Below, one piece after another: positions 11,601-53,831 of a stretch of 62,718 nucleotides of DNA. Positions within the stretch are counted from its first letter, which is position 1, and every line of letters begins with the position of its first letter. The notes under the pieces are model-generated. The model was not told the DNA's origin, made no database searches, and saw only the letters and a list, made by a program, of their open reading frames with translations. The stretch is from a bacterium (GTDB lineage: Bacteria > CG2-30-53-67 > CG2-30-70-394), in the NCBI GenBank assembly GCA_036393335.1, contig DASWHD010000093.1, forward strand, positions 1 through 62,718. Reading direction: 5' to 3'. Position numbers and translations under genes: made by a program.

Positions 11601-11608
11601 GGCGTCTG

Positions 11609-13320: not shown

Positions 13321-13340
13321 GGGGGAAACGGTGGCTTGGC

Positions 13341-15055: not shown

Positions 15056-15706
15056 ATGGCCTTTGAGGTGAACAACGGCGCGCGCAACGGCGCGCGCAAA
15101 GTCCGGTACGGGATGCTGGTGGACCTGCGTCGCTGCGTCGGCTGCCAGTCGTGCTCCGTGGCCTGCAAGAGCGAAAACGAGGTGCCGCTCGGTAAGTTCC
15201 GTACCTGGGTGAAGGTAATCGAGAAGGGCCGTTATCCGGACGTCAGCCGGCAGTTCCTGCCGATCATGTGCAACCAGTGCGAGAAGCCGATCTGCAACCG
15301 CAACTGCCCGGTCAAGGCGACCTACGTGCGCGACGACGGCATCGTCGAGGTCAACCCCCATCGCTGCATCGGCTGCATGTACTGCATGGCGTCGTGCCCG
15401 TACGACGTGCGCTACATCAACCCGCTGCGCAAGATCGTACAGAAGTGCAATTGGTGCGCGCACCGCCTCGATGCGGGGTTGTTGCCGGCCTGCGTCGAGA
15501 CCTGTCTGGGCCGTGCCCTGGTGTTCGGCGACATCAACGACCCGAACAGCGAGATCTCGCAGCTCCTGGCGACCAATCCGGTGGTTACCCTGAAGGCGGC
15601 TCTCGGGACCGAACCACACTGCTTTTACATCGGGGCGGACGCGGACGCCATGGATCCCACCAAGGGCGTGGACATCAACCACCTGCACTTCCACGAGCCG
15701 TATTAG
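15056..15706 (+). CDS. 4Fe-4S ferredoxin-type subunit (PsrB/TtrB/NrfC-like, no own signal peptide)
   Basis: CVGCQSCSVACK, CNQCEKPICNRNCP, CIGCMYCMASCP and CNWC...C cluster motifs; 216 aa. Confidence 0.9.
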   Translation: MAFEVNNGARNGARKVRYGMLVDLRRCVGCQSCSVACKSENEVPLGKFRTWVKVIEKGRYPDVSRQFLPIMCNQCEKPICNRNCPVKATYVRDDGIVEVNPHRCIGCMYCMASCPYDVRYINPLRKIVQKCNWCAHRLDAGLLPACVETCLGRALVFGDINDPNSEISQLLATNPVVTLKAALGTEPHCFYIGADADAMDPTKGVDINHLHFHEPY

Positions 15707-15707
15707 T

Positions 15708-15810
15708 GAGAGCCGTCAGCTTTCAGCGGTTAGCTGTCAGCTCGTGGAATCCCGAAATGAAAGACTTCCGATCAAGCTGACCGCTGAAGGCTGATCGCTG
15801 AGAGCTAACC
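15708..15810. repeat. Heptamer-periodic hairpin repeat ((NNTCAGC)x4 ... (GCTGANN)x5)
   Basis: Read directly. It fills the 105-nt gap between the FeS gene and the NrfD-like gene of one operon. Confidence 0.8.
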
Positions 15811-15811
15811 C

Positions 15812-16750
15812 ATGGACGTCGGAAGCCAAGTGACGGTGCTCTACAACGCGCCGTACCAGATGCCGTTTCAGCTCCCCATCGCGCAGTACTTCTACTTCAC
15901 GGGTCTGTCGGCTGGCTCGTTCGTGGTATCGGTGATCGCGGTCCTCGGCGGCAAGACCGAATACAAGCCCCTGGGCCGGATCGGCGCGATTCTCGCGCCC
16001 CTGTGCCTGATCCTGGCGCCGATGAACCTGCTGGTGGACATGACCCAGCCGCTACGGTTCTGGCACCTGATGACCTACCTGCCGGGCTACGTGAACTTCC
16101 GCTCGCCCATCACCTACGGCGTGATGCTCCTCACCTCCTATCCCATCTCGGCGATCGTCTACGCCTATTTCGTCTATTCGGACAACCTCAAGTGGTCGAA
16201 GATCATGGCGATCATCGGCATCCCGCTGGCGATCGCCGTGCACGGGTACACCGGCTTCATCCTCGCCTTGGGGAAGGGCCGCGCCCTGTGGAACACGGCG
16301 CTGATGCCGACCCTGTTCATCGTCTCCGCGATGGTGTCGGGCATCGCCTTGATGATCATCATGGCGGTGATCCGCAACCTGTGGATGATGCGCGACGAGA
16401 CGCCGGAGGCGCGGCAAAAGGACGCCCAGCTCATCTGCGGCCTGGGCAACTTCCTCGGGGCGGCGATCGTCGCCGATCTCTTCCTCCTGTTTAACGCGGT
16501 GTTGGTGATCTTGACCTCCAGCCAAGAGGCGTTCCACGCGGCGGAGCTCCTCCTCTGGGGCCACTTCGCCCCCGAATTCATCGGCGTCGAGCTGATCATC
16601 GGCGCCCTGATCCCGCTGGTCATCGTCTTCTACCCGAAGACCAAGCGCTCGTTCGCTTGGCTGAGCCTGGCCTCGGTGATGACCATGGTCGGCATCTTCG
16701 CGATGCGTTTCACGGTAGTGGTCGGGGGACAGTCAGTACCCCTTCACTGA
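15812..16750 (+). CDS. NrfD/PsrC-family membrane anchor subunit (312 aa)
   Basis: Polytopic hydrophobic protein in a PsrC-like size class, between the FeS subunit and the molybdopterin subunit. Confidence 0.82.
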   Translation: MDVGSQVTVLYNAPYQMPFQLPIAQYFYFTGLSAGSFVVSVIAVLGGKTEYKPLGRIGAILAPLCLILAPMNLLVDMTQPLRFWHLMTYLPGYVNFRSPITYGVMLLTSYPISAIVYAYFVYSDNLKWSKIMAIIGIPLAIAVHGYTGFILALGKGRALWNTALMPTLFIVSAMVSGIALMIIMAVIRNLWMMRDETPEARQKDAQLICGLGNFLGAAIVADLFLLFNAVLVILTSSQEAFHAAELLLWGHFAPEFIGVELIIGALIPLVIVFYPKTKRSFAWLSLASVMTMVGIFAMRFTVVVGGQSVPLH

Positions 16751-16811
16751 CGGCCATCACCGAAGCGACCGGCAGAACGGTGGGGCGATCGTTGTGTAAG
16801 GAAACGTGGCG

Positions 16812-19121
16812 ATGAAATTGACGCGCAGGCAGCTCTTCAAATACTCCGCCCTGGGCGGTGCGTTGCTGGGGATGGAGCGCTCCTTCGACCACATGGCACG
16901 GGCCATGGAGCTGATCGAGGGGGGCAAGGAGGTCTCGCGCACCACGGGCAAGAACCTCAAGGCGATCCCGAGCACCTGCCTGCACTGCTACGCGCGCTGC
17001 GGCAACTTCGGCTTCACCGCCTATGGCGAGCTGCTCAAGATCGGTCCCAGCACCCAGCATCCGAATAGCCGGGGTCGTCTATGCGCCAAGGGACAGGCGG
17101 GGCTGAACCGGGTCTACGACCCGGATCGCCTGATGCTGCCGTTGAAACGCACGGGGCCGCGTGGCGAGGGCAAGTGGCGGCAGATCTCGTGGGAGGCGGC
17201 GTACCAGGAGGTGGCCGACCGTCTGAAGGCCCTGCGCCAGGCGGGCACGCCGGAGCGTTTCGTCTTCCAATCCGACCGCGACATCACCACCCAGCAGATC
17301 ACTCGCCGCTTCTGCCACGCCGTCGGCTCGCCCAACGCCCTGGTCAACCATCCGGTGGGCGGCCTCAACAAGAGCGTGGCCCAGCGGCTCACCTGGGGCG
17401 CGGATTGCGAGGTGCCGGACGTCGCCAACAGCCAGTACATCCTGATCTTCGGCTCCAATCCTTACGAGGCCCACTACCTGCGCACCAGCTTCGTGCAGCG
17501 CATCGCCGAGGCGCGCGGCGTGCGCCGCGCGGGGACCCTGCTCAAGCCCAAGGCGAAGATGGTGGTGTTCGACGTGCGCGTCACCCAGACTTCGGGGCGT
17601 GCCGACGAGTGGCACCCGATCCAGCCCGGCACCGACGGGGCCGTGGCCCTGGCGATGGCCCACGTGATCGTCGAGGAGGGGCTCTACGACGTGGAGTTCA
17701 TGGAGAACTGGACCAACTACCCGATCCGTTCCCTGCGTAACCACCTCCGCCAGTACACTCCCGAGTGGGCCGAGGGGATCAGCGGCGTGAAGGCCTCCGA
17801 TATCAAGCGCCTGGCGCGGGAGTTCGCCACGACCAAGCCGGCGACCACCGTCTCCACCGGGGGGGTGACCAAGCACGCCAATGGCGTCTATACCGAGCGC
17901 GCCGTGGCGCTGCTCAACGCCCTGACCGGGAATGTCGACGTGGAGGGTGGCTACTGTCTGCCGCGCAGCTTCGCACTAGCGGATCCGGAGCCGGTACCGC
18001 TGGTGCCGCGGGTGGCGAGCGAGCTCCTGCACCCGTCCGATTACCCCCTCGCCATGCACGAGGTGCCGTCGCGGGTGCTGCCCATGATCAAGGAAGGCCG
18101 GGCCAAGGTCGGCGTGTACATGACCTATCAGCACAACCCCGTGTACTCCCAGGCCGAGGGGCCGTCGTTGGCAAAGATCTTGGAGGACGAGGAGCTGATT
18201 CCGTACTTCGTCTGCCTCGACTCGGTGTACACCGAGACCGCCGCATACGCGGACCTGCTGCTGCCCGCCGCGACGTTCGCTGAACGCTGGGAGTTGGAGA
18301 GCCCGCCCGCCTTCGAGATGGTGCCGTTCGTCTCGTTACGCCAACCCCTCATCTTCCCCCTCGGCGAGGCGGTGGCAGTCACCGACGTGCTGATCAATCT
18401 CGCCGCGCGCCTCGGGGACGATGTGCACCGCTACTTCGACTTCACCACCCGCGAGTATCTGGAGGCACAGCTTGCCGGCGTGCCCGGCATCGAGCAGGCG
18501 GGGGGGCTGCACCACCTGATCGAGAAGGGGTTCTGGTTCGACCAGGCCGCCCAGCCGGAGTACCGCAGCTATCAGAGGCGCGGTTTCGCCACCCCCTCCG
18601 GCAAGTTCGAGATCTATTCCGGACGGATGGAGGAGGCCGGTTACTCGCCCCTGCCGGTCTATCAGCAGCTCCCGGTGGTGGAGAACCTGGAGGAAGAGGA
18701 GTTCACCCTCGTCACCTACCAGAGTCGGGTGCACACCCATGATCGCACCGCCAACTGCATGTGGCTCTCGGAGATCGACCATAACAACCCGGCGTTCATC
18801 AACACCGCCACCCTGGAGCGGCTGGGGATCGCCGATGGCAGCGAGGTGGTGCTCGCGTCCCGCGTCGGGCGGGTCCGGACCAAGGTCAAGGCGATCCAGG
18901 GGATCCACCCCAAGGTGATCGCCGTTAGCGACAACATGGGTCACTGGGAGCTTGGCCGTGTCGCCCAGGCCGTGCGCTTCGAGAGCGACGTGAAGACCAC
19001 CAAGTTGCTGTGGTGGGAGGAGCACGGGATACACCCCATGCCGATCATCGCCCTCAAGCAGGACCCGATCGGCGGCGGCGAGGCGTTGATGGATACCAAG
19101 GTCTGGATTCGCCGGGCATAA
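16812..19121 (+). CDS. Tat-exported molybdopterin (bis-MGD) oxidoreductase catalytic subunit, PsrA/PhsA/TtrA-like
   Basis: Twin-arginine signal MKLTRRQLFKYSALGG. N-terminal FeS motif CLHCYARCG...CAKG. About 770 aa with a molybdopterin-oxidoreductase layout. ATG 16812 is preceded by AAGGAA. Confidence 0.88.
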   Translation: MKLTRRQLFKYSALGGALLGMERSFDHMARAMELIEGGKEVSRTTGKNLKAIPSTCLHCYARCGNFGFTAYGELLKIGPSTQHPNSRGRLCAKGQAGLNRVYDPDRLMLPLKRTGPRGEGKWRQISWEAAYQEVADRLKALRQAGTPERFVFQSDRDITTQQITRRFCHAVGSPNALVNHPVGGLNKSVAQRLTWGADCEVPDVANSQYILIFGSNPYEAHYLRTSFVQRIAEARGVRRAGTLLKPKAKMVVFDVRVTQTSGRADEWHPIQPGTDGAVALAMAHVIVEEGLYDVEFMENWTNYPIRSLRNHLRQYTPEWAEGISGVKASDIKRLAREFATTKPATTVSTGGVTKHANGVYTERAVALLNALTGNVDVEGGYCLPRSFALADPEPVPLVPRVASELLHPSDYPLAMHEVPSRVLPMIKEGRAKVGVYMTYQHNPVYSQAEGPSLAKILEDEELIPYFVCLDSVYTETAAYADLLLPAATFAERWELESPPAFEMVPFVSLRQPLIFPLGEAVAVTDVLINLAARLGDDVHRYFDFTTREYLEAQLAGVPGIEQAGGLHHLIEKGFWFDQAAQPEYRSYQRRGFATPSGKFEIYSGRMEEAGYSPLPVYQQLPVVENLEEEEFTLVTYQSRVHTHDRTANCMWLSEIDHNNPAFINTATLERLGIADGSEVVLASRVGRVRTKVKAIQGIHPKVIAVSDNMGHWELGRVAQAVRFESDVKTTKLLWWEEHGIHPMPIIALKQDPIGGGEALMDTKVWIRRA

Positions 19122-19130
19122 GGTGGCGAT

Positions 19131-20309
19131 ATGATCCGCATCCCCAAGATACGGCTGAAGTACTTCCTGATCGCGCTGCCCTTCATCGTGTCGATTCCGA
19201 GCGTCTTCGTGTTGGCGCTGGAGCGCTTCACCACCTCCGACCAGCGCTTCTGCCTCACCTGCCATTACCAGATGTGGGGCAAGGACTTTCTCGTCGACTC
19301 GAAGGTCCACCCGCCGGAGGTACGGTGTCCCGAGTGCCACGCGACGGAGCACGTCCCGTTCTTACCACCCAAGGATTTCGCCTCCGACCCGAGTCGGGTC
19401 AACGTCAACTGCATGCGCTGCCACGGGGAGATGGTCGAGCGGTCAGACGTGGAGGGCTTCAAGTACAACGTGATGAAGATCCAGTTCCCCCACAAGCTAC
19501 ACCTCCAGGAGGTGGGGGCCCTGTGTACCGACTGCCACTACAACGTGAAGCACGACAAGCACATCCCCCAGACCAACCGGCCGCGGATGGTGGCGTGCTT
19601 CGAGTGCCACGATCAGGAGACGACGAGCTGCCTGAAGTGCCATCCCAAGGGCGAGCACCTGCTGCTCAGCCTGCTACCGCGCCACGAAACGATCGCCAAG
19701 CCGGTGTGCGAACAGTGTCACGAGGGTTTCGAGGACCGTGTGCAGGTGGAGTACGGCATCCGTTTCAAGCATGCCAAGCACCTGGAAAACGGCATCGCCT
19801 GCGGGACCTGTCACGAGAACAAGAACCAGCATGGGGTCATCACCAAGCAACGCAGCGAGTGTATGGCCTGCCATCACGGCGATGAGGCCCGCGCCTGCAC
19901 TGACTGCCACGCCACGCAGGTGGCGATGCGCTCCGGCAAGCTCCTGGGCATCCCCGGCGAACCTGACGTCATGGCGGCCGATGTCGAGTGCGACGTATGC
20001 CACGCGGAAGTGCGTGAGGGACACGACCCGCAGGCGATCCGCCAGACTTGCGCCGATTGCCACGAGGATGCCGTTCTCGCCAAGCTGGACGAGATCCAAC
20101 GGCGGGTGAGCGCCGAGCTGGCACGGATCGGCGGCCGGTTCGACGTCCTCCAGGATGGCCATTCGGCCGGCGTGGTGGTGGCCGGGGAGATCCTCGATGA
20201 CCTGCGCGGCGATGGCAGCCGTGGCTTCCACAACGCCAAGTACGCCGACATCCTGTTGCAGCGCGCGGATGAGCTGATCTCGGCGGAGGGGCGCGCCGAG
20301 GTCAAGTGA
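19131..20309 (+). CDS. Membrane-anchored dodecahaem c-type cytochrome with a NapC/NirT-like N-terminus
   Basis: 12 CXXCH motifs. N-terminal TM helix followed by FCLTCH...VH...CPECH, as in NapC/NirT/CymA-type quinol dehydrogenases. Confidence 0.85.
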   Translation: MIRIPKIRLKYFLIALPFIVSIPSVFVLALERFTTSDQRFCLTCHYQMWGKDFLVDSKVHPPEVRCPECHATEHVPFLPPKDFASDPSRVNVNCMRCHGEMVERSDVEGFKYNVMKIQFPHKLHLQEVGALCTDCHYNVKHDKHIPQTNRPRMVACFECHDQETTSCLKCHPKGEHLLLSLLPRHETIAKPVCEQCHEGFEDRVQVEYGIRFKHAKHLENGIACGTCHENKNQHGVITKQRSECMACHHGDEARACTDCHATQVAMRSGKLLGIPGEPDVMAADVECDVCHAEVREGHDPQAIRQTCADCHEDAVLAKLDEIQRRVSAELARIGGRFDVLQDGHSAGVVVAGEILDDLRGDGSRGFHNAKYADILLQRADELISAEGRAEVK

Positions 20310-20347
20310 GGGTGACCTTTCCCCAGTCTCTACCCAGGGTCTCCGCC

Positions 20348-20767
20348 ATGAACCGACACCTCCTACGGGCTGCATGCCTTGCGTTCCTCCTCCTCGGTGC
20401 CTGCTCGTCGCCGAGCCCCGAGGGGCCGCCCAACACCGACTTCGGGGGCAAGTGGAGTGGCGCCGCGTACAAGACCGGCAGTGCCAATCCGAGCTTCACC
20501 CTTGATTTGGAGCAGTCCGCCGACGCCGTGAGCGGGACGATCAGCTCCGGGGACGGAACCTTTCAGGCGGTAGCGTTAGAGGACGTGCACATCGAGGAGG
20601 ATGGCGGCCTGATCTTCCGCGCCCGGGCCAACGGCGGCTCACAGTTCAAGGACCACCTCTTTCTGTTCGACGCCCACCGCAAGGGCAACACCCTGGAGGG
20701 CACCTGGACCGACATCCTCCAGGGGGCCCAGGGGCCGTTCACCCTGTACGCCGGCGAGGGGCACTAG
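20348..20767 (+). CDS. Putative lipoprotein, unknown function
   Basis: Signal peptide with lipobox LLGAC. Last gene of the plus-strand run. Its TAG stop is the flank of MITE copy C. Confidence 0.5.
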   Translation: MNRHLLRAACLAFLLLGACSSPSPEGPPNTDFGGKWSGAAYKTGSANPSFTLDLEQSADAVSGTISSGDGTFQAVALEDVHIEEDGGLIFRARANGGSQFKDHLFLFDAHRKGNTLEGTWTDILQGAQGPFTLYAGEGH

Positions 20768-21222: not shown

Positions 21223-22392
21223 CTACGGCGTGTGGCACTTGCGACAGACGCGCTCGTTGGTGCGGTTGAAGGTGGAGTCAAACCCCGGTGGGTGGGGGTT
21301 GATGCCAAGCCCGCCGGCACCCGCATCGGCGTGACAGTTAATGCACACCGGCCGGCTGCCCTCGTGACAGCCGGCGCATTGCACGATGTTGCGGCGGATG
21401 GCGGCGATGCCCGCGGGCGAGGTGTCGTGGAAGCCCCCGGTGACCGACACCAGCGGATGATTACCACCCCACGGGTCCGGCCCTCCTTGCACCCAGCGCA
21501 CGCCAGACCGGCCGTGGCAGTCGGTGCAGGTGTTGACGCGGTGGCAGCCCAGACATTGCTGCACGTCGCGACTGGCATCGATGGGGTGGTGGCTGACGTA
21601 GTCTCCGCGGTGAATGAAGTGACGATCGGTGCGCCGGGGCCACTTGACCTCCGGCTTCACCTGATTGTCCACGCCGTTATGACAGTCGGCACAGAAGTCT
21701 TCCTGGTGGCATTGGGCGCAGGCGGTGGGATCTTGCTGCTCGGAGTGGAGCTGGTGGTTGCGCAGCCAGTCGCCGCGATGGGAGAAGTGGGCGAGCTCGG
21801 GTCTATAGCGCGGATCGCTGAGGTCGGAGTGGCACTTGGCGCAGTGCAGTTGGTCGTAATCCTCCTGATGGCAGGTCATGCACGGCGCCATCGTGGGCAG
21901 CTTCTCATCGTGGACGTGCGCCGCCTTGAGGACCCGGTCGTGGCAGACGTGGCAGTCCTCGTCCACCCGTGGCACGTGATCTTGGTGGGAGAAGATCAGC
22001 GGGTGGTCGTAGCGCACCGGCTTGGGCGGTGCTTCCTTGCGCTTGGCTTCCTCCAGGGTCTCCGCATCTCGGTGACACACCCCGCAATCCTTGTCGGCGA
22101 TCTGCTGCTCATGACACTGCTCGCACACCTCCATGGTCGGCAGGTCGCGGGTGTGCTCGTCGGCGCTGCTCTCGATCCCGCCGTGGCACTCACGGCACGG
22201 GATCTCGTTGTCCACCGCGTGGAGCTTGTGGCTAAAGTTGAAGTGCTCGGGGGGCTGGCGAAAGATGTGCAGGCAGGCGGCGAGGCCGGCGAGCAACGCT
22301 ACCGCGACAAACACTTGCAGGGCACGCACCGTCGGCGAGGAGATCGACATCTCCCGGGCCCCCGGGGGGGAGGTGGTATGTGGGGCGTTCAT
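21223..22392 (-). CDS. 13-haem c-type cytochrome, probable lipoprotein
   Basis: 13 CXXCH motifs. Hydrophobic N-terminus ending in the lipobox-like LAAC. ATG 22392 is preceded by AGGAG. Starts 31 nt after the barrel gene's stop. Confidence 0.85.
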   Translation of the reverse strand: MNAPHTTSPPGAREMSISSPTVRALQVFVAVALLAGLAACLHIFRQPPEHFNFSHKLHAVDNEIPCRECHGGIESSADEHTRDLPTMEVCEQCHEQQIADKDCGVCHRDAETLEEAKRKEAPPKPVRYDHPLIFSHQDHVPRVDEDCHVCHDRVLKAAHVHDEKLPTMAPCMTCHQEDYDQLHCAKCHSDLSDPRYRPELAHFSHRGDWLRNHQLHSEQQDPTACAQCHQEDFCADCHNGVDNQVKPEVKWPRRTDRHFIHRGDYVSHHPIDASRDVQQCLGCHRVNTCTDCHGRSGVRWVQGGPDPWGGNHPLVSVTGGFHDTSPAGIAAIRRNIVQCAGCHEGSRPVCINCHADAGAGGLGINPHPPGFDSTFNRTNERVCRKCHTP

Positions 22393-22423
22393 CTCCGTGA
22401 CTCCTGTGACCGGGAGGGGGGGG

Positions 22424-23746
22424 CTAGAAGTTGTACACCAGCTTGACGGTGGCATCGACGTCTTGGCGGAAGCCGAGATCCGACTCCCGCGTGCTCGGTA
22501 CCCGGATCTCGCTGCCGCCGGCGGTAACCGTGGTGTAGTCCCGATAGTCGGGGCGCGTGCCGTAGTCGAGGCTGCCGGTGAGCTGCCAGTGATCGCCGAT
22601 GTCCGCCCCTAGGGTGGCCGTCGTGCTGTACGTGTAGTGCTGACGGTCCCCGGGGAAGATCGGGTCGTCGAAGTGGTAGAGGATGAAGTCGAGGCCGTAG
22701 AACAGCCTGGTGAGGTCCGAGCGGCTGGTGACCCATGGGTTATCGAAGGTGTAGCGCCCGTAGAGGTGGGTCCGCTTCGACTCCGGCCAATTCTCGAAGG
22801 CGGCGCCGACCTCGTTGCGCAACCCCTTGCCCCACCGGTAGTGGCCCTCGGCCCCTTCGGTCCAGTCGTCGTCGCCGTCGCTGTAGTCGTAGCGGCGCGC
22901 GTCGGCGGACAGGGTCCAGTGTCTGTCGACCCGGTAGTCGGCGCGCAGGCCGAGCTCCCGCTGCTTGTCGTCGGAGAAGATCAGATTACCGAAGATCGAC
23001 GTGTGGCTCAGGAAGAGGTTGGGGATCACCTGACCGTAGTCGGCCGAGAACAGCAGTTTGGCGGTCGCCTCCCAGGTAAGGAGGAACTGGTAGTCGAACC
23101 ACTCCTCCGAGATACGGTCCCAGAAGCCGTGGGCGTTGACCGCGACCTTGTCGATGACCTGGGCCCAGCCGTCCAGCCCGAGGCGTGCGAAGCCGGTCTG
23201 ATCGTCGTCCCGCGTCTCCATCGCGGAGGCGCCCACCTCGAAGCGCGGCTGGCGGGTGTAGAGCCGGCCGCCCCACTCCAGGTCCCCGGACCGGCCCCCG
23301 ATGTCGTCATTCACCTGCCGGCCGGCATACGCCTGGAAGCCGATGCGGTACTGGCTCAGCCAGTCACCATACACGCCGTCGAGGTACTCGCTGGCGACGC
23401 CGGCGCGGACGAATTGCCGCCCCGCGCGCACGAAGAGGTTCCGCTCCCGGTCCCGCCACTGGAGGTAGGCGTAGGTCAGCTCCCCGTCGACGTTGTGGTC
23501 GTAGGTCTGGTCACGCAGGTCGACCTTGCCGAAGCCGTCGAGATGAAAGCTCAGCGCTTCATTTCCCAGGTCGTAGGCATTCAGCGAGACAAACTGGAAG
23601 AGTGGGATCTGCTCCGTGTTGCCGTCGACGTCGAACCGCTCCTGGGTGTAGGCCAGGGTGGTAAGCCGCCCCCGTAGCTCGGCGGAGTGGGCCGAGCCGC
23701 CGATGAGGACCGCGCAGCAAGCCACGACCAAGGCACGCGTCGCCAT
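22424..23746 (-). CDS. Outer-membrane beta-barrel (porin-like) protein, 440 aa
   Basis: Cleavable signal (MATRALVVACCAVLIGGSAHSA). Alternating hydrophobic/aromatic strand pattern rich in Y, G, D and R. C-terminal ...VKLVYNF ending in Phe. No CXXCH motif. Confidence 0.65.
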   Translation of the reverse strand: MATRALVVACCAVLIGGSAHSAELRGRLTTLAYTQERFDVDGNTEQIPLFQFVSLNAYDLGNEALSFHLDGFGKVDLRDQTYDHNVDGELTYAYLQWRDRERNLFVRAGRQFVRAGVASEYLDGVYGDWLSQYRIGFQAYAGRQVNDDIGGRSGDLEWGGRLYTRQPRFEVGASAMETRDDDQTGFARLGLDGWAQVIDKVAVNAHGFWDRISEEWFDYQFLLTWEATAKLLFSADYGQVIPNLFLSHTSIFGNLIFSDDKQRELGLRADYRVDRHWTLSADARRYDYSDGDDDWTEGAEGHYRWGKGLRNEVGAAFENWPESKRTHLYGRYTFDNPWVTSRSDLTRLFYGLDFILYHFDDPIFPGDRQHYTYSTTATLGADIGDHWQLTGSLDYGTRPDYRDYTTVTAGGSEIRVPSTRESDLGFRQDVDATVKLVYNF

Positions 23747-24080
23747 GGGGAACTCCTTGAGGGATGGGGTCGGTTAACGTGGGACGGAGCGGTGGCTGGG
23801 GACACCGAGGTAGGAAACTTCGCACCTCCCAAAGCGAAGGCCGCTCCGCCAACCTGGAGCAATAGCCCACGACAATCTCGCGCCACACTTAACCCGATCC
23901 TCAGTGGCGAGGTCAAGGTCGTGACCGTACTTCGGAGCTCGGCCCCCCTGCGGGCACCTCATCACCGTGAGGCCGCCGATGGCACTGGGCCGGCAACACT
24001 GGACGCCGGCCGCAACGACGTGGCTATAAGGCGCGACAACTCTCCCCAAGCGGTATTCCCGTGCCAGGACCGGGGAGGTT

Positions 24081-25031
24081 CTACTGCGCCAGTGAGACCT
24101 TCAGGTGGGGTAGGTAGAAGGGCTCGGGTGAGAGCGGCTCGTGACAGTTGCCGCAGGTCTCCTCGATCTCCGCAACGGTGAACCGCCAGTGGTGGGCCCT
24201 GTGGCAGTCAGTGCAATTTCCCACCGCATCCAGGTGGAGGGCATGGACCTCGTGCTCGCCGATCGGCTTGTGGCAGCCCAGACAAACCTCCGGCTTGGGC
24301 TTGGTGAGTTCCGGATCGTGCGGCTTGTGACAGACCGTGCATTGCAGGTGCATCAACTCTTGTTGTTCGTCCGGGTCTGGCCCGAACTGCTGGTGGCAGG
24401 CGAGGCAGGTGCGGCGGTCCGGTTTGATGTCGCGGGTCTTGTCCGTGTGGCAGCTCAGACAGCGCACCACCGGCTCACCCGCGACGCTGCCGTGTAGATA
24501 GTCGACCTGCCCTTCGTGGCAATTCAGGCACAGGTCCATGGCCGGTGGAAATACATGGAGGCTCTGGCCGGCGTGGCACTGGGCACACTCGATCTCCTGG
24601 ACATACACGTGCAACGCGTGCCCCATGGATTGGTTGATCTTCGGGGCGTTGGGGTAGTCGGGATTCTTGCGCCAGTGGCACTTGACGCAGTACTCGAAGG
24701 GTACATTCACCGTCCCCTTGGTCTTTACGTAGGGATCGGTGACCTTCTCCGGTGCGAGGAAGATGGTCTGGAGCAGCATCTTGTTTTTTGCGGCGGTGGT
24801 GGCGTGGTGGCACTCGTGGCAGTTGATCCCCCGGTGCACGCTCTGCTTCCACGCCTCGAATGCACTCTCCATCACGTGGCACTGATTGCAGAAGGTCGGA
24901 TCGTTCTCCATGTAGTCCTGCGCGAAGTAGTTGGCCGTGAGACCCACCCCACCCGAGGCGAGCAAGATGACCACCAGGAGCAGCGGGCGGCGGGCGAGAA
25001 ACAGCCACGCATACCGCACGAATCTCAGCAT
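24081..25031 (-). CDS. Membrane-anchored undecahaem c-type cytochrome with a NapC/NirT-like N-terminus
   Basis: 11 CXXCH motifs. N-terminal TM helix followed by FCNQCH...SVH...CHECH. Confidence 0.85.
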   Translation of the reverse strand: MLRFVRYAWLFLARRPLLLVVILLASGGVGLTANYFAQDYMENDPTFCNQCHVMESAFEAWKQSVHRGINCHECHHATTAAKNKMLLQTIFLAPEKVTDPYVKTKGTVNVPFEYCVKCHWRKNPDYPNAPKINQSMGHALHVYVQEIECAQCHAGQSLHVFPPAMDLCLNCHEGQVDYLHGSVAGEPVVRCLSCHTDKTRDIKPDRRTCLACHQQFGPDPDEQQELMHLQCTVCHKPHDPELTKPKPEVCLGCHKPIGEHEVHALHLDAVGNCTDCHRAHHWRFTVAEIEETCGNCHEPLSPEPFYLPHLKVSLAQ

Positions 25032-25270: not shown

Positions 25271-25312
25271 GGGAAGAGAAAATGGCCGCCCGGTCATGAT
25301 CGGGCGGCCATT
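25271..25312 (-). terminator. Rho-independent terminator candidate
   Basis: Perfect 12-bp stem AATGGCCGCCCG / CGGGCGGCCATT with an 8-nt loop. On the minus strand it is followed by a U-rich tail (TTTTCTCTT). About 100 nt downstream of the stop at 25415. Confidence 0.5.
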
Positions 25313-25414: not shown

Positions 25415-25954
25415 CTATTGCGCGCGACCGCTCAATAGGCTCCCGGCGAGCACCAGCAGCTCTTCGGATGACGATCGCATCTGTATGTCGATCCAGAGAT
25501 CTCCCTCCATGAAGGTGATTTTGCTGCACGGCTCGCCATCGTCGCAGAATCCGCTCTCGACGACCGATTCCCGCCCCTTCAGGTTGACCGACGAAGCCTG
25601 CCTGACGCGCTTGAGGCGGATCTGTGGCCGCTGCTGCAACCGTCGAGACGACGTCTGGGTGATAACCAGCGCGACCTCCTGAGAATCCACGCGATGGAAC
25701 TCCATGACCACCGCAGCAAAGGGTTTGCTCTGCGCCAGCACGCGTGATGGAGGCCACACGAGCGTCTTCGGGAAATAGGCCGGCACGTAGATCTTTGCGA
25801 TCCCGAGCGTTGCCTGAGCCTCGGCGATGCTGGCATAGCGACGGACTGTCCCCGGTTGAAAAGCGCCCGGAAGCCAGTCGATGAGCTTCAGGGCGACGAT
25901 CAGCACAACGGTAAAAAAAAGGAAGGTCGGAAGCGAAATGGCATGCCGGCGCAT
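25415..25954 (-). CDS. Hypothetical membrane-anchored protein (179 aa)
   Basis: N-terminal TM helix. Starts 22 nt downstream of the M56-like peptidase gene. Lies in the lower-GC patch. No family recognised. Confidence 0.5.
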   Translation of the reverse strand: MRRHAISLPTFLFFTVVLIVALKLIDWLPGAFQPGTVRRYASIAEAQATLGIAKIYVPAYFPKTLVWPPSRVLAQSKPFAAVVMEFHRVDSQEVALVITQTSSRRLQQRPQIRLKRVRQASSVNLKGRESVVESGFCDDGEPCSKITFMEGDLWIDIQMRSSSEELLVLAGSLLSGRAQ

Positions 25955-25975
25955 GACACCTCCAAGCAGGCGGTT

Positions 25976-27007
25976 TCACATCACGTAATAGTTGATAGCA
26001 AGGATCACCACCACCACGATGACCCAGACCAATGGCCATTCTCCTTCACGTTCGTTATCGACGTGCCGGAGGCGCCTGATCCTTTCCGCAATGTGTAGCC
26101 TATGGCTGTGTGCTTCGAGTGCCGATCGTAGATCGGAAAGTCGTTCTACGTGAAATGATTCGGGCACTTCGTGCTCCTGAAGGAGCCTCTGTAACGCCAC
26201 GGCGAGGGCCTCGGGCTTCTTGGTCCACGAGACCGCGACATCGTCGCAGATATCCTCCTCCGCATGGACAATCTTGCGAAACTCGATCAGAGTGATCGGA
26301 TTGAAGAACATAAGGACTCGGAGAAGAAATAGCATCACCAGCGCAGAGCTCTGGCTCCTCCTGATATGTGCTAGCTCGTGCGTGATGGCCGCTTGCAGCT
26401 CGTCGTGAGTCAGCAGTGCTTGGATCCCTCGGGATACGTAGATCGTTGCTCCCGATCCCGTCGTGGAAAAGATCAATGGCTCGTCGGCCTCGAGCAGTGC
26501 GATGTGTGGTTTCTCACCAGGTATCCCCTGTAACACATCGCTCATGACGCTGCCTTCCACTGGGGAAATCCGTCGGTATCCGGCCGTGGCCGATCCGAGC
26601 AGGTGGCGCACGATCGGAATCAGCTCCTGGACAAAAAAAATCACTGCCGTGAAGGCCAGCAGTAGGAAAAACAACGCATAGAGTGGGACGCCCTGACAGA
26701 GATCGAGGTATAGCCAGTCGTCGGTATTCAAGAGGGCGTCGAGGCGGGATGACATCGTTCCGCGGTGGGGGTCGATGAGCTGGTAGGCTGGGAAGGCAAG
26801 AACCGGGAGGAGGATCACGAGCGTCCGGAGTCGCTGCTGAACGATGGGCTGGTCGATCCCCCACGCCCGCAGGGCGCTCTCCACCACGATCGCGGCGGTC
26901 AAGGAGTGACACACCGACTGAATCAGGTATCTTCCGGGCAGGGTGAGGAGGAGATCGGAGAGGGACATTTTCTTTTCCGGATTCTCAGGAGGCCGCTGGG
27001 TTGCCAT
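25976..27007 (-). CDS. M56/M48-type (BlaR1-like) membrane zinc metallopeptidase
   Basis: Several TM helices and a HELAH (HEXXH) zinc motif in the BlaR1-like context ...LQAAITHELAHIRR. Confidence 0.72.
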   Translation of the reverse strand: MATQRPPENPEKKMSLSDLLLTLPGRYLIQSVCHSLTAAIVVESALRAWGIDQPIVQQRLRTLVILLPVLAFPAYQLIDPHRGTMSSRLDALLNTDDWLYLDLCQGVPLYALFFLLLAFTAVIFFVQELIPIVRHLLGSATAGYRRISPVEGSVMSDVLQGIPGEKPHIALLEADEPLIFSTTGSGATIYVSRGIQALLTHDELQAAITHELAHIRRSQSSALVMLFLLRVLMFFNPITLIEFRKIVHAEEDICDDVAVSWTKKPEALAVALQRLLQEHEVPESFHVERLSDLRSALEAHSHRLHIAERIRRLRHVDNEREGEWPLVWVIVVVVILAINYYVM

Positions 27008-27357: not shown

Positions 27358-29193
27358 ATGCAAAAACGGATCATGCTCATCGTCGTCATGAGCATGCTTA
27401 TCATATTTGTCGGCCTCGGTGTGGTCAGCTATCTCAGCGTACGCCTCAGTATCAAGAGCTCGTTAGATGCGCGTCTAACCCTCGCAGAAATCATCAGCGA
27501 ATATTTCGATCATGTGGTCGAAAGCAACCTTACCAGGCTCTACGACATGTCGATCACTGGTAAGTTCGATCTGCGAGACAACGACTCGGATCCAGAGTTG
27601 AGCGCTGTTAGAACGGCATACGAGTACTCCATATTCACCGATGGAATCTTTGTGCTCGATCGTCGCGGTACGCTGATTCTCGGCTATCCCTATCGGGAGG
27701 AGCCAGGGCTCAGCTTCCTGAGCATGCCGTACGTGAGCCGGGCCATCGCGGAGGGGAAGCCGGTCATCTCGGACGTCTACACGGAGGAAATGACGCGGAA
27801 AAAGTTGATCTATGCGTTGGTTCCTTTGCGGGACAAGGACGGGGAGACCATCGGACTCGCAGGGGGCGAGATCAGTCCGACCAACTATGCGTTTTCCCGG
27901 GTCATCCAGGCGATACCTCTGCAGCCGTCGCGCCTCATCGAACTGATCGACAGTCACGGCATCGTCATCGCGTCGAGTGATGCCCGCCGGGTCCTTACCC
28001 GCACGGATCACAACGAGTTCCTCGGCAATCTGATCCATCAGAAGAAGAGTATCGTTGGTACGTGCCATCGCTGTCACGAGGAGGAAGCGACGGGAGCGCA
28101 TCGGACGGAAGATACGCTCGCCTTCGCGCCCCTGTCTTTAGCGCCGTGGGGAGTTGCAGTCCGCGAGCGACGGGCGATCGTCTTCGCGCCATCGACCGAC
28201 CTGAAGATGTGGTTCGCCATCCTCGGTCTCATATCGCTGGCCACGGCGTTGTTGCTGTCCATCGGGCTGAGCCGCAGCATCGTACGTCCCGTACGGGAGC
28301 TCGCCTGGGCGACCAAGAGGATCGGGGAGGGCAATCTTTCGCAGCCAGTCGCGGTGGAGAGCACGGACGAACTCGGATCGCTTGCGCGTAGCGTCGACGA
28401 GATGAGGGTCAGACTGGCCGACTCCCTGCAGAGTATCCAGCGCCAGAACTTGGTGCTCGAACAGCGGGTCGCCGAGCGGACACGGGACTTGGCAGCGAGC
28501 CGCGAGAAGCTTTGCCAGTTGCTCAAGAGGGTATTCACGGCGGAGGAAGAGGAGCGAAAGCGGGTCGCCAGGGAGCTCCACGACGACACGAGTCAGGCGC
28601 TGAACGGCATCCTGATGTCACTCGATGCGGTGCGGTTCGCCGTCTCTCCGGACGACCCAGTGCAGGTGCGCCTCGCCACGATCCGGGAACACAGTCTGGC
28701 GACCCTGCAGGGACTCCATCGGTTGATTCGGGACCTTCGTCCGCCGGTGCTCGACGATCTCGGGCTCGAGTCGGCGATCCGCTGGGTTCTGGAGAGCCGC
28801 CTCCGGGACCGGGGTATCGACTACGGCCTGGAGGTGGATGCCAGCTGGCAAGAACACGCGGCCCGCTCGGACCTGGGCCTGGGGCGCGCAGAGCTCGAGG
28901 TACTGCTGTTCCGTGTCATTCAGGAAGCGGTTACCAACATCGTCAAACACGCGCACGCGACGCACGTGCGGGTGACCCTTCGTCTGGAGGGTGCTCTCTG
29001 GGTACTGCGAATCCAGGATGACGGTGTTGGATTTGATACGGATAGCCTGGCCCGCGATGCCGGCGACGGCGCGGACCTGGCCGGTTACGGAATCCTTGGT
29101 ATGCAGGAGCGCGTGGCACTCGTCGATGGCGAGATGACCATCCGATCGGGCCCCGGAGCGGGGACAGAGATCACGGTCGTGGTGCCGGTTTAG
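27358..29193 (+). CDS. Sensor histidine kinase (periplasmic Cache-like domain with a CXXCH motif, HAMP, HisKA_3, HATPase)
   Basis: Two TM helices bracket a domain of about 255 aa that contains CHRCH (nt 28063-28077). H-box ELHDDTSQAL is typical of NarX/DegS-type HisKA_3 kinases. C-terminal ATPase boxes are present. Confidence 0.85.
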   Translation: MQKRIMLIVVMSMLIIFVGLGVVSYLSVRLSIKSSLDARLTLAEIISEYFDHVVESNLTRLYDMSITGKFDLRDNDSDPELSAVRTAYEYSIFTDGIFVLDRRGTLILGYPYREEPGLSFLSMPYVSRAIAEGKPVISDVYTEEMTRKKLIYALVPLRDKDGETIGLAGGEISPTNYAFSRVIQAIPLQPSRLIELIDSHGIVIASSDARRVLTRTDHNEFLGNLIHQKKSIVGTCHRCHEEEATGAHRTEDTLAFAPLSLAPWGVAVRERRAIVFAPSTDLKMWFAILGLISLATALLLSIGLSRSIVRPVRELAWATKRIGEGNLSQPVAVESTDELGSLARSVDEMRVRLADSLQSIQRQNLVLEQRVAERTRDLAASREKLCQLLKRVFTAEEEERKRVARELHDDTSQALNGILMSLDAVRFAVSPDDPVQVRLATIREHSLATLQGLHRLIRDLRPPVLDDLGLESAIRWVLESRLRDRGIDYGLEVDASWQEHAARSDLGLGRAELEVLLFRVIQEAVTNIVKHAHATHVRVTLRLEGALWVLRIQDDGVGFDTDSLARDAGDGADLAGYGILGMQERVALVDGEMTIRSGPGAGTEITVVVPV

Positions 29194-29469
29194 CCCGAAT
29201 CGATTCCCGTCCCTCGGCTGCGCTCGCGCCATCGGCGCACGTCTGATGGACCTGTCCTCGACGCGGGCCAGCAGCGAGAGGCCGGGGACGAGGAGTGACC
29301 GTCAGCCCGTGGGCTGGTCTCTGCAGCGCTTCCTTACCATGGCGCGACCCGTCCCTCTCCCCTGCCCAGTGTGCCTGCGGGCATGGCCTTACGAGCCGGC
29401 CATGGCGGCCGGCTGGTGCTCACGGCGAGTCGCGGTCACGATGCGGGCGACTGTGAAGCGGGAGCCGCA

Positions 29470-30111
29470 ATGATCAAGATCCTTATCGCGGACGACCACG
29501 CCCTGGTCAGGGAGGGCATCATCGCCCTGTTGAGTCCCCATAATCAGATTCAGATCGTCGGCACCGCCGCCAGCGGGCAGGAGGCAATCGAAAAGGCGGG
29601 CAAGCTCCACCCGGACATCATCCTGATGGACATCGCCATGCCCGGACTGGGGGGGCTCGAGGCGACGCTCGAGATCCGCAAGACACACCCAGAAATCAAG
29701 ATCCTGGTCCTCAGCCAGTACGACGACAAAGAGTACGTCAGTCGTCTGTTCAAGGCGGGGGTCTCAGGTTACATCCTGAAACATGCGGTAGGCACCGATC
29801 TAGTCTCCGCCATCCGCGCCGTATACCGCGGGGAGTGTTACCTCTATCCGGCGATCGCCGCGGGGGTCGTCGATGGCTACCTCGGCCGCAGCACGATCGA
29901 CGTCGACGACCCTTACGAGAGCCTGAGCGACCGCGAAAAACAGGTGCTCAAGCTGATCGCGGAGGGGTGCAGCCATAAGGAGATCGCGACATTGCTCGAT
30001 ATCAGCGCCAAAACCGTAATGGCGCACCAGACCAATCTCTCCGAGAAGCTGGGCCTCCGATCGCGTGCGGCGCTCATCCGATTCGCCATCCACAAGGGCA
30101 TCGTCAAATAG
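29470..30111 (+). CDS. NarL/FixJ-family response regulator (REC + LuxR-type HTH)
   Basis: MIKILIADDH...DIILMDIAMPG receiver motifs and a C-terminal LSDREKQVLKLIAEGCSHKEIA HTH. Start moved to ATG 29470. Confidence 0.9.
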   Translation: MIKILIADDHALVREGIIALLSPHNQIQIVGTAASGQEAIEKAGKLHPDIILMDIAMPGLGGLEATLEIRKTHPEIKILVLSQYDDKEYVSRLFKAGVSGYILKHAVGTDLVSAIRAVYRGECYLYPAIAAGVVDGYLGRSTIDVDDPYESLSDREKQVLKLIAEGCSHKEIATLLDISAKTVMAHQTNLSEKLGLRSRAALIRFAIHKGIVK

Positions 30112-30123
30112 ACGGTGCTCCTG

Positions 30124-30888
30124 TCAACCCTGCGGAAGGTGCGGCGGCTCGTCATCCACGGTGGCGTGACCGCTGTCGTGGTGGGCGCCGAGGAGCTCTG
30201 TGAGGGATTTCCCTTCGATCCGTGCGAGCTCGACGGGGTGCTCGTGGAGCATCCGCTTGCGGGAAATCTTGCCGGTGAAGATCACCGTGTCGATCGGGAA
30301 GACCTCGGGACTGAAGACGGCGTTGTAGATGTGCCAGACGACGATGACCAGCAACGCGAGGAGTGCCTCGTTGGTGTGAAGGGCCTTGGCGATCGGGATG
30401 ACCTCGCCGGGCAGGAAGCGGACGACGAGGGTCGGAAACCACAGGGACAGGCCGGTTCCCGCCATCAGCATGCTGCCGATCACCACCCCCCAGTACTCGA
30501 ACTTCTGCTTGTAGTCATAACGGTCGCACAGGGCCGCATGGTTGGTAAGACCAAGGTAGTACTCGAGGTTGTCAATGACGTCCGCGAAGTCCTTCTTGTG
30601 GATGATCATGGTCGGCTGCCACCGCCGGACCAGGACGCCGTATACGGCGGTCAAGACGTGCACCGAGGTCAAGATGATGAGGGCGAAACCGGTGATACGG
30701 TGGATGATCCGAACGGAGTCGATTCCTCCGAGAATCTCGATCAGCCACTGGGATGTCGCGGCGTCATGGAACTTCTGCGATAGGCCGGTCACGACCAACA
30801 CCACGAACACCGTGGCGTTCAACCAATGCTCGGTGATGCGCAGCGGCCCGAGCCGCCGGAGATAGGTGGTGTTGTTTGTCCGGTTCAC
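30124..30888 (-). CDS. Dihaem b-type cytochrome, FdnI/HydC/PhsC family membrane subunit
   Basis: Four or more TM helices with conserved His positions (ITEHWLNA, IHRITGF, HTNEALLAL, WHIYNAVF). Immediately downstream of a 13-haem cytochrome gene. Confidence 0.78.
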   Translation of the reverse strand: MNRTNNTTYLRRLGPLRITEHWLNATVFVVLVVTGLSQKFHDAATSQWLIEILGGIDSVRIIHRITGFALIILTSVHVLTAVYGVLVRRWQPTMIIHKKDFADVIDNLEYYLGLTNHAALCDRYDYKQKFEYWGVVIGSMLMAGTGLSLWFPTLVVRFLPGEVIPIAKALHTNEALLALLVIVVWHIYNAVFSPEVFPIDTVIFTGKISRKRMLHEHPVELARIEGKSLTELLGAHHDSGHATVDDEPPHLPQG

Positions 30889-30901
30889 GGTTCCTCCCCG
30901 G

Positions 30902-32281
30902 TCATCTGTTGATGGCGTACCGCCAGATGTGGAGCAGAATCTGAAGCCCCAGCCCGATGACCATGAACGGAATGAAGATCTTGTAGGCCAGGTTTACCAG
31001 GAACACGCCCGGTGCCTTGTCGAAGCTCGCCTCGTAGTGAGAGACCCAGCTATCGGGGAAGTTGGCCGTGGCATCGGGATGGCATTTCTGGCAACGCTTG
31101 ACAAGGTTCGCCTTGACTGCCGGTGATCCGGGAGCGGTGATCTTTGCGATGTCGTGGATGCCGTGGCAGTCGGTGCAGGTCGCGATCGGACGCAGGTCCC
31201 CCTCTTTCTTGTAGAAGCGGAGGGTGACGCCGTGGAAGTCCTGGACATAGCTCTCCACCACTTGTGTGGAGAGGCCGTACTTTCCGGCGATGCGGCTATT
31301 GGAGTGACAGTTCCCGCAGATCTCCGGGATCGTGAGGTGGAACTCGGCGGTTGTCGGGTCCGGGATGTCGTGAGCGCGATGGCAGTCGGAACACACCGGC
31401 ACATCCTCGTTGTGCTCCGAGAGCATTGCGGCGCCATGGACACTCTCTTTGTACACCACGTAGATGTCCTCATGGCATTGCGCGCAACGCCGGGCGTTCA
31501 CCACCTTCTCCAGGCGTCCCGTCGCGATGGCATGGGCACCGTGGCAATCCACGCACACGGGGGCATCCTGGCGCCCCGAAGAGAGCAGCTCGTAATGGAT
31601 ACTCTCTAGAGTGCGGGTGTATTTGTCGAAGTGGCATCGCCGGCACGTCTCCGCTGACGCCAACGTATGGTCCCGCGGCGAGCGAAAGCTCCGCTCCGGG
31701 TGTTCCTTGGCGGTGAAGCCGAAGTGACAATCGCGACAGCTCAGACGTTGATGGACGGAGTTGGCGAGATCCGCGGGGTTCATCTGCAGGGAGATCCGGC
31801 TGCCATCCCGCGTCGCCAGGTGCAGGGGTTGGCCGTGGCAACCGATACAGTAGAGCGTGTCGTGGAATGCGACGGCGACCGGTTGCACGGCGTGCGCGGT
31901 GTGGCAGTCAGTGCACACCACACGCCTACCCTCCTGTTCCAACAGGGTCCGGTGGATGCCCTGGAATTCGGAGTGGCAGCTTTCGCAAACCCGTGACCAG
32001 AACTGCGAGTGCGCGCTCCGGTCGGGGAACACCTGCGTGGGATGGTCGTCCCCGGTGAAGGACGTATGGCAATCCTGACAGTCCAGGGTGGCGTGGACCG
32101 ACCCTTCAAGCTGGTGGCGATCGACAAAGAGGGAGAGTGTCGCGCCGTTCGCGAACGCGGTGCTCAGGTCGTCGCTGCCATGGCAATCGAGGCACTGATC
32201 CGCCGCGGATGCATATCCGCCGCTGACCAACGCCCAGAGGCTGAGACTCAGTGCCGTGAGGATGATCTTGGGATGCTTCAC
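30902..32281 (-). CDS. 13-haem c-type cytochrome with a C-terminal membrane helix
   Basis: 13 CXXCH motifs. Signal peptide after GTG 32281, which is preceded by GGGAGGG. C-terminal helix FIPFMVIGLGLQILLHIW. The longer ORF to 32368 starts inside MITE copy D. Confidence 0.85.
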   Translation of the reverse strand: MKHPKIILTALSLSLWALVSGGYASAADQCLDCHGSDDLSTAFANGATLSLFVDRHQLEGSVHATLDCQDCHTSFTGDDHPTQVFPDRSAHSQFWSRVCESCHSEFQGIHRTLLEQEGRRVVCTDCHTAHAVQPVAVAFHDTLYCIGCHGQPLHLATRDGSRISLQMNPADLANSVHQRLSCRDCHFGFTAKEHPERSFRSPRDHTLASAETCRRCHFDKYTRTLESIHYELLSSGRQDAPVCVDCHGAHAIATGRLEKVVNARRCAQCHEDIYVVYKESVHGAAMLSEHNEDVPVCSDCHRAHDIPDPTTAEFHLTIPEICGNCHSNSRIAGKYGLSTQVVESYVQDFHGVTLRFYKKEGDLRPIATCTDCHGIHDIAKITAPGSPAVKANLVKRCQKCHPDATANFPDSWVSHYEASFDKAPGVFLVNLAYKIFIPFMVIGLGLQILLHIWRYAINR

Positions 32282-32357
32282 GGAGCTCCCTCCCTGTCGT
32301 TTCCGGCCGCGAGGAGGCTCGCGCACCGCGGCTTCGGGTCTGACACCGCGGTGCGCC

Positions 32358-53751: not shown

Positions 53752-53831
53752 CCCGCATTTCTCACCATGAATCTGCTACGCCCTCGCCACCCGGCCGGCC
53801 AGCAGGGATCCGTGGTGAGAAATGCGGGCTA
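53748..53831. mobile_element. Internally deleted MITE-like repeat, copy H (84 bp)
   Basis: Both termini are present (CTAG-CCCGCATTTCTCACCA ... TGGTGAGAAATGCGGG-CTAc) but the central GTAGGAGCC hairpin is missing. Confidence 0.8.

Follow-up and report, generated by a model that had tools for sequence, protein, structure and literature searches.

The question raised by this locus is whether three neighbouring genes of an uncultured bacterium encode a path by which electrons cross the outer membrane. The genes lie on the minus strand of contig DASWHD010000093.1 (assembly GCA_036393335.1), whose 62,718 nucleotides, referred to here as the window, were analysed as a whole. A preliminary description had proposed that an 11-haem membrane-anchored cytochrome (a), an outer-membrane beta-barrel (b) and a 13-haem lipoprotein (c) form one porin-cytochrome trio, possibly of an undescribed type. 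Our analysis points to a narrower answer: b and c are predicted to be a two-part outer-membrane electron conduit of the Geobacter porin-cytochrome (Pcc) type, with a connecting the menaquinone pool and with a slight lean towards outward electron flow. We give this reading a probability of roughly 0.65.

The three open reading frames (ORFs) were recovered on the minus strand exactly as described before, and the motif counts, the protein lengths, the 31-nt spacer between b and c and the 334-bp gap between a and b (23747-24080) all agreed:

24081-25031, minus strand: gene (a), a 316-aa membrane-anchored cytochrome with 11 CXXCH motifs
22424-23746, minus strand: gene (b), a 440-aa outer-membrane beta-barrel without CXXCH, with a signal-peptide-like N-terminus
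21223-22392, minus strand: gene (c), a 389-aa 13-haem c-type cytochrome with a LAAC lipobox

The number of CXXCH motifs in a (11; mean of residue-shuffled sequences 0.13, maximum 2) and in c (13; mean 0.17, maximum 3) lies far above that of the shuffles, and both are therefore true multihaem cytochromes. The finer features also held: a opens with a hydrophobic helix and a NapC/NirT-like start (first motif CNQCHVM, alignment to the NrfH model), b is haem-free (2 Cys only, zero CXXCH) and closes on a Phe (...VKLVYNF), and in c the motifs follow the lipobox. The ORF of c spans 21223-22455; the preferred start is at 22392 (MNAPH...), 31 nt past the barrel stop codon and with an AGGAG Shine-Dalgarno sequence 8 nt 5' of it. 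The orthologues of c likewise begin with MNAP, and one of them has no alternative internal Met.

The barrel and its 13-haem partner

The AlphaFold2 (AF2) model of b, built on a 12-sequence alignment, is all-beta (predicted local distance difference test score, pLDDT, 80.3; predicted template modelling score, pTM, 0.70) and has 24 strand elements by DSSP. Since two of these are short and possibly form one hairpin, we read the protein as a barrel of 22-24 strands. Foldseek returned generic barrels only, with the highest template modelling (TM) scores (0.52-0.54) to the 24-strand ushers FimD and PapC, ~0.36-0.42 to the 18-strand AlgE and OprD, and 0.24-0.34 to 16-strand porins; MtrB was not in the top 50 matches. 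The barrel-like nature assigned to b earlier is thus borne out, and the model and the Foldseek comparison give a wide barrel and not the narrow OmpA- or alginate-type one that had been named as the outcome that would speak against a conduit. Barrel residues 241-261 (window 22964-23026; IPNLFLSHTSIFGN...) are near-invariant in the close subfamily and were modelled, at very low confidence (pLDDT ~38), as a non-strand loop. This segment may be a lumen loop or a site of contact with a cytochrome.

Scans of the Pfam and NCBIfam libraries gave no match for b, and its family profile found nothing among PDB sequences even at E<=10. Word-indexed searches yielded nine close homologues (54-70% identity) and three more at ~26%; an exhaustive search with the profile reached much further, to 1,147 cluster representatives (clustered at 50% identity) at E<=1e-3, of which 303 lie at E<=1e-30. 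The median length is ~425 aa (150 listed matches together with the earlier homologues). By these matches, the barrel is a member of a large family that is undescribed in the curated libraries. Among the cluster names of ten barrel relatives none was informative, bar one Nitrospirae metagenome-assembled genome (MAG), and a tblastn search of plasmids with b and c gave no match. In one relative (P0105) the barrel is joined to a C-terminal domain of OmpA-like appearance, as judged by eye, and in another locus (L014, 504-3459) a barrel homologue with 60% identity follows genes for an FeS protein and a TorD-like chaperone.

The genomic company of these barrels is highly consistent. A multihaem lipoprotein gene lies directly 3' of the barrel in every barrel-chosen context with downstream sequence (L001-4, L005-L008, L009-L011, L015 and L097-98). 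In L001-4, L006 and L007 this is a 13-haem lipoprotein, and an ~800-aa 8-haem lipoprotein is encoded upstream of the barrel; in L015 it is a 367-aa cytochrome. The barrel of L008 is followed by a 12-haem protein and then by a lipoprotein with at least 5 haems, and those of L009, L011, L097 and L098 by a 5-haem and then a 7-8-haem lipoprotein. In L010 the genes for the barrel, a 5-haem and a 6-haem protein are tandemly duplicated, with 10-haem MtrC-domain proteins on the flanks.

The linkage is also found from the other side. Homologues of c with 30-38% identity, from MAGs of Myxococcales and 'Deltaproteobacteria', each have directly in front of them a gene for a Pfam-less protein (420-536 aa), the stop and start codons of the two genes overlapping or abutting. 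Compared with the barrel profile, these preceding proteins gave E-values of 2.5e-55, 3.5e-21 and 1e-14. Moreover, two members of the barrel family (P0019 and P0024) are natural fusions in which the barrel is followed by a linker rich in Pro and Ala, then by a repeated domain, and at the C-terminus by a tetrahaem c3-like domain. Adjacency, reciprocal linkage and fusions together make a strong comparative case for a barrel that acts jointly with multihaem cytochromes. The part of the earlier proposal that joined b and c in one porin-cytochrome module therefore stands on the width of the barrel, the conserved adjacency and the fusions; the part that counted a as an integral member is not supported.

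The partner itself belongs to a family of 59 proteins of 340-390 aa which carry, almost invariably, 13 CXXCH motifs. Eleven His residues outside the motifs are invariant or nearly so, a pattern that fits bis-His electron-transfer haems, and c has only ~27 residues per haem. By the spacing of its motifs, c starts with two trihaem repeats of the c7 type, at 66/90/103 and at 147/171/184; six further CXXCH come in three pairs, and a lone one closes the series. Compared with the PDB, the family profile matched GSU1996 best (3OV0, E 2e-32), then ActA and Hmc, with MtrA (6R2Q_A) at 1.7e-8; ActA was the sole fold match in Foldseek. A search of the literature for 13-haem or tridecahaem cytochromes produced nothing relevant. 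The lipobox Cys is present in most members of the family; in the most distant members the signal peptide is of the ordinary Ala-X-Ala type.

The 11-haem protein and the transcription of the locus

Residues 28-154 of a align to positions 11-134 (of 138) of the NrfH model TIGR03153 with E 9.6e-14, and the best PDB match is NrfH (2J7A, E 2.6e-7). The scores do not reach the curated cut-offs (TIGR03153: 51.6 bits, cut-off 134.2; NapC/NirT family PF03264: 19.5, cut-off 24.1), and a is for this reason classed, on sequence grounds, as an NrfH-like tetrahaem quinol-dehydrogenase-like module extended by seven haems, not as an NrfH equivalog. It shares with NrfH and CymA the single N-terminal transmembrane helix, which serves as an anchor, the four haems over the whole NrfH model and a first motif of the NrfH type (CXXCHxM). 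It differs from them in its seven extra haems, which resemble ActA and c7 modules, in its sub-cut-off scores, in having no NrfA partner and in having a family operon of its own.

That operon became apparent in a metagenome scan, which gave 102 relatives of a (exactly 11 CXXCH in 72 of the 80 kept). The usual neighbours of the family are hemL upstream and, downstream, genes for a 157-aa tetrahaem protein, a TtrB/DsrO/NrfC-like FeS protein exported by twin-arginine translocation (TAT) and an NrfD-like membrane protein. In L021-L096 the relatives mostly lie in this conserved set of hemL, 11-haem, 157-aa tetrahaem, TAT FeS and NrfD-like genes. Judged by its gene content, it looks like an undescribed quinone-linked membrane complex with NrfH-type and NrfD-type modules.

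A homologue of a adjoins the barrel and c homologues only in the window's own lineage (L005, L017, L018 and L020). Another barrel context (L015, 68% barrel identity) was set aside as a case of a missing upstream a, since its contig ends 294 bp upstream and so does not cover a gap of the length found in the window. The restriction to one lineage, the different operon in which the family usually occurs and the promoter-like element of the barrel gene described below all speak against a as an integral part of the module.

The preliminary description had called the co-transcription of a and b uncertain. The intergenic region has a conserved promoter-like element of its own 5' of the barrel gene:

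23887-23916, minus strand: promoter-like element TTGACC-18 nt-TTAAGT, 5' of the barrel gene
23747-23886, minus strand: putative 5' leader of ~134 nt, with the ribosome-binding site AAGGAG at 23753-23758

Both the promoter-like element and the ribosome-binding site are invariant in four orthologous gaps between a and b, which measure 317 to ~630 nt and are largely diverged otherwise. In comparison with L005, the proximal ~170 nt 5' of the barrel ATG (23747-23916) are far better conserved than the distal gap. The invariance of the element amid a diverged gap and the conservation of the proximal region led us to conclude that b and c have a putative promoter of their own, from which a transcript with the above leader would start; read-through from a is possible. 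Gene a is probably monocistronic. A terminator-like hairpin, with a 12-bp GC-rich stem and a T-rich tail after it, lies upstream of a (25281-25312). A generic promoter and terminator scan called no promoter and weak terminators only, and the -10 hexamer TTAAGT matches at 3 of 6 positions. Rfam gave no match over 20.5-27.5 kb, and a hidden small ORF or RNA in the gap between a and b found no support beyond the proximal conservation.

Known conduits and the proposed electron path

The short barrel and the unusual haem counts had been taken as signs of an undescribed conduit type. However, both are covered by the diversity already published. Pcc barrels have 18-22 predicted strands and partners with 5-14 haems; two-gene clusters that combine a barrel with a 12-14-haem cytochrome of 338-344 aa are known from Anaeromyxobacter and Ca. 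Kuenenia; two-gene clusters occur without an outer-surface lipoprotein cytochrome, and some pcc clusters have genes for cytoplasmic-membrane cytochromes next to them (Shi et al. 2014, PMC4245776). The ExtABCD and ExtEFG conduits of G. sulfurreducens have 18-21-strand barrels with lipoprotein cytochromes encoded downstream (Otero et al. 2018, PMC6148476). Sequence-divergent porin-cytochrome clusters are, in addition, regularly reported in uncultured phyla (PMC5566968; bioRxiv 10.64898/2026.05.27.727921; PMC9040806 for Nitrospirota). Since the Pcc and Ext barrels, partners and two-gene clusters have like features, the non-canonical look of the locus falls inside the published Pcc range.

Two of the features by which a Pcc cluster is recognised are present in the window: an outer-membrane barrel (22-24 strands) beside a multihaem cytochrome whose gene lies 31 nt downstream, and, as a partner of 5-14 haems that could span the membrane, protein c with its 13 CXXCH, dense haem packing and conserved distal His. 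Like the two-gene Pcc clusters, the locus has a small barrel (18-22 strands there, 22-24 here) beside a haem-dense cytochrome of ~340-390 aa and no obligatory surface cytochrome, and the c family includes 345-353-aa 13-CXXCH proteins of Myxococcales MAGs that are encoded beside barrels of ~420 aa. It departs from them in that c is a predicted lipoprotein, whereas the partners were classed as periplasmic by Shi et al. (a comparison by description only), and in having an NrfH-like 11-haem neighbour. Distant loci of the barrel family, with a 5-haem and then a 6-8-haem lipoprotein, follow an order like that of ExtB, ExtC and ExtD; in contrast to ExtABCD, with 5- and 12-haem lipoproteins and a periplasmic dodecahaem cytochrome, the window has, as judged by description, one 13-haem lipoprotein.

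The Mtr, Mto and Pio systems share the principle of a cytochrome threaded through a barrel, and MtoAB and PioAB do so without a surface cytochrome; in Sideroxydans a gene of the CymA type is likewise part of the mto cluster (PMC6295460). Protein c is built from c7-type repeats, unlike the MtrA-type decahaem. MtrB itself has 26 strands. Membership of this group was rejected, as there was no match to the MtrB/PioB, MtrC or DmsE families at curated thresholds and the barrel has 22-24 strands against 26-28; with the MtrA/DmsE decahaem model TIGR03508, c gave no match and a scored 32 bits against a cut-off of 192. Cyc2, in which a monohaem CXXCH domain is joined to a 16-strand barrel, was likewise rejected, b having no CXXCH and only 2 Cys. 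The PCC3 systems combine extracellular and periplasmic cytochromes of ~34 and ~21 haems with a conserved inner-membrane protein of five transmembrane helices (He 2017, PMC5566968). The haem counts of 13 and 11 and the absence of such a five-helix protein from the cluster led us to reject PCC3 as well. Thus, of the families against which the preliminary description had advised a check, b and c lie outside Mtr, Cyc2 and PCC3 by the features tested. Homology searches with the barrel and c returned no named homologue. The N-terminal c7-type trihaem repeats of c are shared with GSU1996 (3OV0) and with ActA of alternative complex III; GSU1996 differs as a soluble periplasmic dodecahaem protein without a link to a barrel, whereas c carries a lipobox and has a C-terminal half of its own kind, with 7 haems.

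Taken together, b and c very probably represent a lineage-specific variant of the known Pcc kind, to which they are likened by published descriptions, and not a categorically new conduit. What is particular to the variant is the lipid-anchored 13-haem c7-type partner, the barrel of 22-24 strands, whose family is uncurated, and, in this lineage only, the 11-haem neighbour of NrfH-like type.

In the mechanism that we propose, the barrel would sheathe the slim bis-His cytochrome c, and electrons would cross the outer membrane via c. The latter would be held by a lipid anchor in the inner leaflet of the outer membrane and reach into the barrel from the periplasm, in a position like that of MtrA, MtoA or OmaB, which would make the locus a two-component version, like MtoAB or PioAB, without a separate surface cytochrome. 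The probably separately transcribed a would join the menaquinone pool to this conduit, maybe together with a split CbcL-like pair encoded nearby. The dimensions are compatible with such an arrangement: at 22-24 strands the C-alpha diameter of the barrel would be ~40 Å, within the range of MtrB sheathing MtrA, and 13 closely packed haems can exceed the ~40 Å thickness of the outer membrane several-fold. The 12-haem GSU1996 is ~12 nm long. MtrA has a length of ~100 Å (PMC4245776), and the periplasm is ~170 Å wide (PMC11492766). A direct contact between a and c across the periplasm is speculative. Of low probability is a minimal two-cytochrome wire, in which a would hand electrons directly to the barrel-sheathed c with no soluble carrier and no surface decahaem, and in which the barrel and c would represent a large, uncurated conduit family that evolved independently of the Mtr and Omb/Ext barrels.

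The topology favoured in the preliminary description placed c on the cell surface as a terminal reductase (like MtrC or OmcB), with a or an unlinked periplasmic cytochrome threaded through the barrel, so that two cytochromes would reach from the quinone to the surface. In its favour is the conserved lipobox of c, a feature of the surface cytochromes MtrC, OmcB, ExtC and ExtD (PMC6148476); the two lipoprotein cytochromes that follow distant barrel relatives in an ExtBCD-like order and the position of a directly upstream in the window's lineage can be added, and 11 plus 13 haems could cover ~200 Å or more, against the periplasmic width of ~170 Å (PMC11492766). We nevertheless consider this topology unlikely. 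Distant homologues of c with ordinary signal peptides are not lipoproteins and yet adjoin barrels, as in the bare two-gene barrel-plus-cytochrome locus L016. Many loci carry a larger lipoprotein cytochrome upstream (8, 18 or 26 haems, in two cases with the OmcB-type CxxxxCH/CxxCH domain TIGR01904), which suggests that in those loci this third protein has the surface role; the window cluster has a single secreted cytochrome, the lipobox-bearing one, and no separate surface cytochrome at the locus. Furthermore, a is missing from most loci with the module and, being anchored in the inner membrane with 11 haems, cannot also pass the outer membrane. On account of the non-lipoprotein relatives and the larger upstream lipoproteins, c is more likely a barrel-inserted partner facing the periplasm than a surface cap.

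Two further explanations concern the use of the conduit and its very existence. With the same anatomy, electrons could be taken up from outside the cell, be it from Fe(II), Mn(II), a mineral or a partner cell, as in MtoAB and PioAB, with a acting as a quinone reductase. We entertain this tentatively: modules of two components that lack a surface decahaem typify oxidisers (PMC4245776), proteins of the CymA/NapC type have been proposed to be bidirectional (PMC6295460), and Mn(II)- and Fe(II)-oxidising lithotrophs occur among Nitrospirota, in which PCC complexes have been proposed for uptake (PMC9040806). On the other hand, the metal reducer Anaeromyxobacter also has two-gene pcc clusters, with Adeh_3392 rising on Mn(IV) (PMC4245776), the nearby genes are modules of the anaerobic-respiration type (Psr/Ttr-like, NrfD, cytochrome b), and no oxidase or carbon-fixation gene was present among the scanned ORFs. 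Outward flow, i.e. reduction of an insoluble or extracellular acceptor, appears slightly the more probable. It is, by comparison, very improbable that the barrel is an ordinary solute porin, for instance for a substrate of the neighbouring Psr/Ttr-like molybdoenzyme, with the cytochrome beside it by accident. Such a role would agree with the generic porins, ushers and AlgE returned by Foldseek, with the lack of a family annotation and with the proximity of redox genes (FeS/TorD-like in L014, the Psr-like operon in the window). It is countered by the adjacency of barrel and multihaem genes, kept across phyla at 25-30% identity and often with overlapping codons, by the barrel-tetrahaem fusions, and by a strand number that makes the barrel wider than known solute porins.

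Several points weigh against the two-part conduit with an attached quinol branch which we prefer. We infer the fit of c inside b from the strand number alone, and the AF2 model of c (pLDDT 70.6) is confident in the N-terminal half and poor in the C-terminal half. The contexts reached via c homologues are biased toward barrel-plus-cytochrome pairs. As for a, it is absent beside the barrel in L001, L006, L007 and L014 (54-60% barrel identity), where other genes lie upstream, and within the lineage the island as a whole is at least as syntenic as a is.

The surrounding island and the meaning of the pair

Among genomes, the nearest match is JASFUG010000010, from a Nitrospirota MAG, whose barrel is 90% identical to b and whose region is fully collinear with the window. 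One metagenome contig (L017) is essentially identical to the window, and two others (L018 and L020) carry the same island at 63-88% protein identity. In these two, the orthologues of a, b and c show 63-76% identity, and most other island genes reach 80-88%; the values for the M56 peptidase and a 153-aa lipoprotein are likewise lower (68-78%). This suggests that the envelope-exposed parts of the conduit tend to evolve faster than most island genes. Three further gene groups of the island may be of importance for the conduit:

30124-32368, minus strand: split CbcL-like pair, a 488-aa 13-haem cytochrome with a C-terminal transmembrane helix and then a 254-aa FdnI/HydC-type cytochrome b
27358-30111, plus strand: dCache/HAMP histidine kinase and LuxR-type response regulator, recognised in a domain scan
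15056-20767, plus strand: convergent Psr/Ttr/Phs-like molybdoenzyme operon

The first two groups are syntenic in L017, L018 and L020. The order of parts in the cytochrome pair is that of the fused CbcL/MtrH/MtoC quinol oxidoreductases (a comparison that follows PMC6295460), here split over two genes. The pair therefore resembles, as far as its gene order tells, a split CbcL-like quinol:cytochrome module that is possibly associated with the conduit, and the kinase and regulator are possibly associated with it as well. The molybdoenzyme operon, syntenic in L005 and L020, encodes a TtrB/PsrB-like FeS protein, NrfD, a 771-aa TAT molybdopterin oxidoreductase, a 392-aa 12-haem cytochrome and the 153-aa lipoprotein. 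By analogy with DmsEFAB of Shewanella, a functional link between this enzyme and the conduit is conceivable.

Directly upstream of a (25415-27007, minus strand) lie genes for a 343-aa membrane peptidase of the BlaR1/M56-M48 type and a Pfam-less 179-aa membrane protein; both keep their synteny in all relatives, and together they may act as a sensor or as a unit of anti-sigma-like type. A respiratory module at 10368-14153 (minus strand) comprises a 270-aa 5-haem cytochrome, a 412-aa poly-FeS protein and a 478-aa NrfD-like membrane protein. Farther away, the segment 54001-56000 has a GC content of 0.787 (~0.65 elsewhere) and lies inside an 897-aa ORF rich in Ala, Leu and Arg (53822-56515).

To conclude, the finding extends the known porin-cytochrome theme and introduces no new principle. 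It draws attention to a widespread pair of genes, for a barrel and a 13-haem cytochrome, that is not recognised by Pfam or NCBIfam, and profiles made from our alignments A3 (barrel) and A5 (13-haem protein) could serve to annotate this pair in metagenomes. The module is compact (~830 residues over two genes) and could be an attractive part for engineered electron conduits. If the prediction is true, an uncultured high-GC lineage of Nitrospirota would join the organisms that are predicted to exchange electrons with minerals or partner cells.

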